Shown here piece after piece: positions 62,200 to 62,640 of a stretch of 64,000 bases of DNA; position 1 is the first letter of the stretch, and each line of letters starts with the position of its first letter. The notes under the pieces are model-generated. The model was given only the letters and a program-made list of their open reading frames with translations, was not told the origin of the DNA and did no database searches. The DNA lies in the NCBI GenBank assembly GCA_000002445.1, contig CP000068.1, positions 1,544,199 through 1,608,198 on the forward strand, in the 5' to 3' direction. This DNA comes from Trypanosoma brucei (Eukaryota). The position numbers and the translations under genes were made by a program.

Positions 62200-62640
62200 A
62201 ACACTCTTATTATAATATTAGCTTATACGCACTCACAACACTCTTCTATTATTATTATTATTATTATTATTATTATTATTATTATTATTATTATTATTAT
62301 TATTATTATTATTATTATTATTATTATTATTATTATTATTATTATTATTATTATTATTATTATTATTATTATTATTATTATTATTATTATTATTATTATT
62401 ATTATTATTATTATTATTATTATTATTATTATTATTATTATTATTATTATTATTATTATTATTATTATTATTATTATTATTATTATTATTATTATTATTA
62501 TTATTATTATTATTATTATTATTATTATTATTATTATTATTATTATTATTATTATTATTATTATTATTATTATTATTATTATTATATTTGTATACACACA
62601 CCAACAACTCACTCCTATCATTTTTACTGCTACTCATAAA
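62200..62640 (-). repeat. 70-bp repeat with a hyper-expanded (TAA)~111 tract (62251-62583) plus a second partial unit
   Basis: ttagcttatacgcactcacaacactcttct is followed by ~333 bp of perfect (att)n, then atatttgtatacacacaccaacaactcactcc. Confidence 0.9.

Follow-up and report, generated by a model that had tools for sequence, protein, structure and literature searches.

Trypanosoma brucei is the sleeping-sickness parasite and VSG is its surface antigen. Long (TAA)n tracts in or between the 70/76-bp repeats of this organism have been known since 1984-85, and their occurrence is an ordinary finding. The title of Campbell, van Bree & Boothroyd 1984 (NAR 12:2759) names a '(TAA)90' flanked by tandem 76-bp repeats, and that of Aline et al. 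1985 (NAR 13:3161) names '(TAA)n' beside intrachromosomal VSG genes. Length variation in the AT-rich stretch that separates conserved repeat units was noted by Hovel-Miner et al. 2016, and the role of the triplet component is described in reviews as needing investigation (PMC6237402; PMC4858185). For the same motif, a 'non-H-bonded' (unpaired) state of TTA.TAA in supercoiled plasmids is reported to have been described by Ohshima, Kang, Larson & Wells 1996 (JBC 271:16784).

The two tracts described here, (TAA)113 and (TAA)45, share organism, repeat family and motif with those of 1984 and 1985, and their length is of the same order as the 90 units given in the 1984 title. As far as the titles of the two papers go, tract 1 resembles the (TAA)90 in lying between two repeat units, and both tracts resemble those of 1985 in flanking VSGs of an intrachromosomal array; they differ in being two specific TREU927 array loci, one of them somewhat longer than 90 units. 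The initial annotation of this DNA presented the finding as noteworthy, a view that does not hold given that a (TAA)90 between 76-bp repeats was, by its title, published in 1984.

VSG array and repeat census

The window, a stretch of 64,000 nt of T. brucei contig CP000068.1, was found to contain minus-strand ORFs with Pfam VSG_B and Trypan_glycop_C domains (Pfam domain search). Two of the VSGs are exact matches to the T. brucei brucei TREU927 proteins XP_845142.1 and XP_845143.1, and a third (ORF 7324-8748) is 99% identical to EATRO1125 VSG 1125.4691. The domains taken with the exact protein matches identify the window as silent VSG array DNA from the TREU927 reference genome, in which every VSG is on the minus strand. 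A tblastn search using the window's own VSGs as queries gave 18 VSG-like regions, some of which are pieces of one gene.

Repeats were located by scanning both strands of the whole window with the 13-mer of the conserved 70-bp-repeat core, ACACTCACAACAC on the plus strand, at up to two mismatches. There were 31 matches, against 1.7 expected by chance. One is a two-mismatch match on the opposite strand, within a VSG, and the other 30 group into 14 loci, each upstream of a VSG. The ordinary units (n = 26) carry a strict in-frame T-R-R (T-purine-purine) tract, located 1-10 nt 5' of the core on the minus strand and made of 3-13 triplets (median 6) in which TAA, TGA and TAG are mixed; this bears out the earlier description of most units as carrying 5-10 TAA/TGA triplets. 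Two further cores gave no strict in-frame T-R-R tract. Long pure (TAA)n was found in 2 of the 14 loci, with 45 and 113 units.

The VSG-like regions at 10411-11913, 22976-24495 and 30395-31972 (minus strand) had no upstream core at up to two mismatches in the 13-mer scan, and their 70-bp repeats may be absent or too degenerate. A single 70-bp unit is present at 7057-7088, about 260 bp past the stop codon of the VSG at 7324-8748, and the stretch behind it from 2000 to 7000 yielded nothing VSG-like. At 45909-46188 there is a 54-bp short variant of the 70-bp repeat in 5.2 tandem copies of 97% identity, which is devoid of the TTATAATAAGAGCAG segment.

Length and purity of the two tracts

Tandem Repeats Finder and a direct scan for perfect period-3 runs gave the same result for both tracts:

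62247-62585, minus strand: tract 1, perfect (TAA)n of 339 bp, 113.0 copies with a period of 3, 100% matches and no indels
10062-10196, minus strand: tract 2, perfect (TAA)n of 135 bp, 45.0 copies, 100% matches

The plus strand of both reads ATT/TAT, and the TAA motif is on the minus strand, which is the VSG sense strand. Uninterrupted pure runs of ~333 bp and ~130 bp had been described at 62251-62583 (~111 triplets) and 10063-10195 (~44 triplets), and the positions and counts found here coincide with these within a few bases.

Perfect AAT-class runs of at least 12 bp number 21 in the whole window, and 19 of them have 4-8 units, with nothing between 8 and 45. As all the remaining runs are this short, the two tracts are clear outliers and not the end of a continuum. 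At the window's base composition a pure run of 135 bp would arise by chance with a probability of ~1e-68 per position, and a chance origin of the tracts is excluded.

The ORFs 62179-62664 (plus strand), 62223-62621 and 62233-62637 (both minus strand), of 132-161 aa, arise purely from reading through the triplet tract; their translations are homopolymeric, and a gene caller could mis-annotate them.

Repeat units adjoining the tracts

Both long tracts are located 4-7 nt from a core, in the position that the TRR tract occupies in other units, but consist of pure TAA. Their assignment to 70-bp repeats, already made in the initial annotation, was confirmed by the elements expected of a T. brucei 70-bp (76-bp) repeat. 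At both loci a GT-rich core GTGTTGTGAGTGTG adjoins the triplet tract, the T-purine-purine tract directly precedes the core when read on the VSG sense strand, and further downstream this strand carries a VSG gene or pseudogene. Alignment also disclosed the AT-rich segment ATATACGAATATTATAATAAGAG 3' of the core, present as ATATACGAATATTATAAG in the unit of tract 2 and as a diverged ATAAGCTAATATTATAATAAGAG in that of tract 1. For tract 2 the position at the 5' boundary of a duplicated or converted VSG cassette was found as well. The adjoining units are:

62586-62650, minus strand: degenerate 70-bp unit directly 5' of tract 1, TGATAGGAGTGAGTTGTTGGTGTGTGTATACAAAT, which aligns with other units across the core
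62180-62246, minus strand: 70-bp unit directly 3' of tract 1, GAAGAGTGTTGTGAGTGCGTATAAGCTAATATTATAATAAGAG, with its core at 62229-62241 (1 mismatch)
10020-10061, minus strand: single canonical 70-bp unit 3' of tract 2, GTGAGTGTGTTGTGAGTGTGTATATACGAATATTATAAG, with its core at 10043-10055 (0 mismatches)

The unit at 62586-62650 was missed by the 13-mer scan because it has three mismatches. It meets tract 1 directly after CAAATAT, without TTATAATAAGAGCAG, a type of junction that is also seen in the 54-bp variants at 45909-46188. The unit at 62180-62246 shows 85-93% identity to other units, so that tract 1 is enclosed by two 70-bp units, degenerate on the 5' side and moderately diverged on the 3' side. 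The unit at 10020-10061 is 100% identical to other units over 34 bp; tract 2 forms the 5' edge of this single unit and has unique sequence on its own 5' side.

Cassettes downstream of the tracts

Tract 2 heads a VSG located 1.3 kb downstream on the minus strand, while the cassette of tract 1 consists, along the minus strand, of the tract and repeat, a non-coding spacer, an ingi element on the opposite strand and a C-terminal VSG fragment:

7324-8748, minus strand: VSG headed by tract 2, a 474-aa ORF, the homologue of EATRO1125 VSG 1125.4691 (99% identity)
61415-62179, minus strand: non-coding spacer of ~0.77 kb, with stop codons in all three minus-strand frames and no VSG similarity
~58600-61414 (5' end approximate), plus strand: 5'-truncated non-LTR retroelement of the ingi type, interrupting the tract 1 cassette
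58000-58590, minus strand: VSG C-terminal fragment, the sole remnant of a gene downstream of tract 1 (tblastn E = 1e-17)

The ORF at 7324-8748 ends in a Lys/Arg-rich tail without cysteines, and the Cys-rich C-terminal domain and a hydrophobic, GPI-signal-like tail are found in another reading frame. As the domain and tail are out of frame, this VSG appears to carry a C-terminal frameshift, and it is best read as a frameshifted pseudogene or an atypical VSG. EATRO1125 VSG 1125.4691 has the same frameshifted tail, and the frameshift hence appears older than the strain split.

In the tract 1 cassette, the possibility of an intact VSG N-terminal domain at 61415-62246 was rejected, as stop codons occur throughout all frames and no VSG similarity was found. 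The ingi element encodes RNase H (E = 2.9e-10) and a C2H2 zinc finger and has an A10 tail at 61405-61414. It stands in the place of the N-terminal part of a VSG, in an orientation opposite to that of the VSGs. The fragment at 58000-58590 matched residues 298-410 of one of the window's own VSGs, and its translation agrees with this. Neither cassette contains an intact, directly usable VSG behind its tract.

The RIME-type 3' end of the ingi (61162-61415) is 92% identical to a RIME-like copy at 20725-20975. The latter forms the 3' 254 bp of a RIME-like short retroelement of ~0.48 kb (~20500-20975, plus strand), which ends in an A-run at 20966-20972 and is located between the 70-bp unit at 22595 and the VSG at 18657-20135. 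A link between tract 1 and the insertion of the ingi was considered and rejected as unsupported, the poly(A) end of the element lying 0.77 kb from the repeat.

Comparison with the T. equiperdum locus

Positions 10099-5092 of the window align with T. equiperdum contig CZPT02001059.1 (L001), 6580-11578, at 93% identity over 5 kb. Taken by segment, the 1.3-kb spacer upstream of the gene matches at 96.3%, the coding region at 91.9% and the sequence beyond it at 93.6%; the homology runs on through the stretch around the single unit at 7057-7088. At 93% identity the T. equiperdum locus may be a paralogue instead of an orthologue. The comparison concerns tract 2 and is that of one locus, taken from a gapped scaffold.

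At the position of the (TAA)45 of TREU927, T. equiperdum has TGATAATAATAATGATAATGATAATAATAATG, that is 10 triplets of which 3 are TGA. Tract length and purity thus appear to differ at a homologous site; the difference, 10 against 45 units, is one between loci that are 93% identical and perhaps not orthologous. The homology starts inside tract 2, with none upstream of the tract, and in the alignment tract 2 marks the 5' end of the homologous cassette, the place where a 70-bp repeat would be expected. As the T. equiperdum tract is short and interrupted and the homology starts at the tract, the long tracts look like slippage expansions. The 3.7% divergence of the flank predicts ~2.5 substitutions in 135 bp, with a Poisson probability of ~0.08 for none, and the lack of substitutions in tract 2 is only weakly informative on its purity.

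A protein search with the frameshifted VSG pseudogene upstream of tract 1 (62.9-64 kb) gave no match; with no related locus found, tract 1 has no comparator. The exact-protein look-up for the ORFs 7324-8748, 59830-61140, 36199-37755 and 26962-28467, for the EATRO1125 homologue and for a TREU927 protein returned none on record. The T. equiperdum contig contains an internal telomere-like (GGTTAG)8 run at 5643-5692, between two VSG fragments and ~0.9 kb upstream of its 70-bp unit, which has no counterpart in the window.

In the T. equiperdum scaffold the tract has an N-gap 28 bp away on its upstream side, which shows that sequence next to such repeats is difficult to assemble and is in keeping with the earlier remark that tracts this long collapse in short-read assemblies. 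The TREU927 reference record was built from clone-based capillary sequencing, which, like this gap, counts toward the rather unlikely alternative that the tracts themselves exist but that cloning in E. coli, slippage in Sanger reads or assembly has distorted the unit counts of 113 and 45. Contraction during cloning does occur, an AAT repeat of 24 units having given an 8-unit deletion product in E. coli (PMC3000339); however, cloning usually shortens repeats, so that the true tracts would if anything be longer. Moreover, a capillary read, at ~700 bp (PMC4858185), exceeds the 339-bp tract in length, unique sequence on either side anchors the tract, and the (TAA)90 named in the 1984 title was obtained independently.

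The stop of the T. equiperdum synteny at tract 2 could also be explained if the long tracts had not been made in place but had reached the array through reciprocal exchange or back-conversion from a telomeric expression site, a type of locus with long 70-bp/TAA arrays, and the (TAA)90 of 1984 lay, according to its title, in the upstream barren region where transposition of a VSG gene has its 5' limit. Such an import is nevertheless highly improbable: expression sites hold kilobases of tandem units, whereas tract 2 has one unit and tract 1 two; no ESAG or telomere sequence is nearby; and the absence of TTATAATAAGAGCAG from the unit 5' of tract 1 is a trait of the array's own 54-bp variants. Expansion by slippage within the array is the preferred explanation.

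Physical properties of the tracts

In single-strand DNA folding, each strand of the two tracts came out at a minimum free energy of 0 kcal/mol and was less structured than shuffled controls. The tracts do not behave as hairpin- or triplex-forming expandable triplet repeats with stable single-strand hairpins or slipped structures, and hairpin or cruciform non-B DNA was rejected, both strands being unstructured; with a folding energy of zero the hairpin model is not applicable. In the nearest-neighbour profile the tracts are instead the least stable duplex of the window, at -0.82 kcal/mol per step compared with a mean of -1.31 (z = 3.8-4.2). This lowest duplex stability fits the easily unwound element suggested by the TTA.TAA structure of Ohshima et al., which has the same motif; that structure is known from plasmids, whereas the value given here is a computed stability and says nothing on trypanosome chromatin. 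The initial annotation had called TAA tracts unstable and prone to form non-B DNA: the former agrees with the view in the literature (Ohshima et al. 1996, cited in PMC3467770 and PMC6237402), while the latter, in the sense of hairpins, is contradicted by the folding energy.

The arrangement nonetheless recalls in part that of other expandable repeats, and the interrupted TRR tracts of the window are short (3-13 triplets), the interruption-free ones long (45 and 113), with a short and interrupted tract at the homologous site. Triplet repeats of the disease type (CNG, GAA) are kept stable by interruptions and expand where a pure tract exceeds a threshold. The TAA and TTA strands differ from these in being without hairpin potential, and any instability would come about through ready melting and slippage and would involve no structured intermediate.

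It was also considered whether the long tracts might be fragile sites or hotspots of recombination that change the use of adjacent silent VSGs as donors. As regards fragility, no other DNA in the window melts as easily as the tracts, (TAA)n is viewed as physically unstable and has been proposed to stall replication (PMC3467770), the cassette homology breaks exactly at tract 2, and the cassette of tract 1 is rearranged, with a retroelement, although the ingi is 0.77 kb away from tract 1 and not at the tract. An effect on donor use is less readily derived, since a break turns a silent locus into a recipient of repair and not into a donor, so that fragility alone does not bias donor use. In addition, BLISS gave no clear break signal within the BES1 70-bp repeats, and the rise in break signal of rad51-/- mutants was confined to the active expression site (PMC10691351); donor choice is set by coding-sequence homology and telomere proximity (PMC12137147), and ectopic donors without 70-bp repeats serve mosaic formation (PMC13233330). 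Given the recipient argument and this published evidence on breaks and donors, the idea of a donor bias is speculative and, as a whole, improbable; with the genes adjoining both tracts defective, such a bias is unlikely to matter for these two cassettes.

Discussion

The tracts are the TRR part of ordinary 70-bp repeats, probably expanded by slippage at a cassette boundary and of a length that is most likely neutral. According to this explanation, the triplet (TRR/TAA) component of ordinary 70-bp (76-bp) repeats upstream of silent array VSG cassettes would have become, at two loci without TGA or TAG, an interruption-free microsatellite, which may have grown to 45 and 113 units by replication slippage, possibly aided by unequal exchange. 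Interrupted tracts would be held at 3-13 units, while a pure tract would be free to expand, continued slippage preserving its purity. In the alignment tract 2 coincides precisely with the point where the cassette homology begins, the 5' limit at which VSG gene conversion classically stops. Each tract is an easily melted duplex of 100% A+T and not a hairpin former, and its length would probably be a neutral by-product of repeat composition rather than a tuned signal.

A stronger role, in which long pure (TAA)n in silent arrays would be length-dependent elements of unwinding or replication stalling that destabilise the array locally, is very unlikely. Were it true, these elements would drive cassette loss, duplication and retroelement-associated rearrangement, tract length would set the turnover rate of individual archive VSGs, and the defective cassette headed by (TAA)113 would illustrate this.

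The practical value of the finding is modest and the current picture of antigenic variation is unaltered by it. The two loci mark likely break points of short-read assemblies of VSG arrays, and, with about a dozen short interrupted tracts in the same array for comparison with the pure (TAA)45 and (TAA)113, they offer natural test cases for whether the triplets of a 70-bp repeat have any function.
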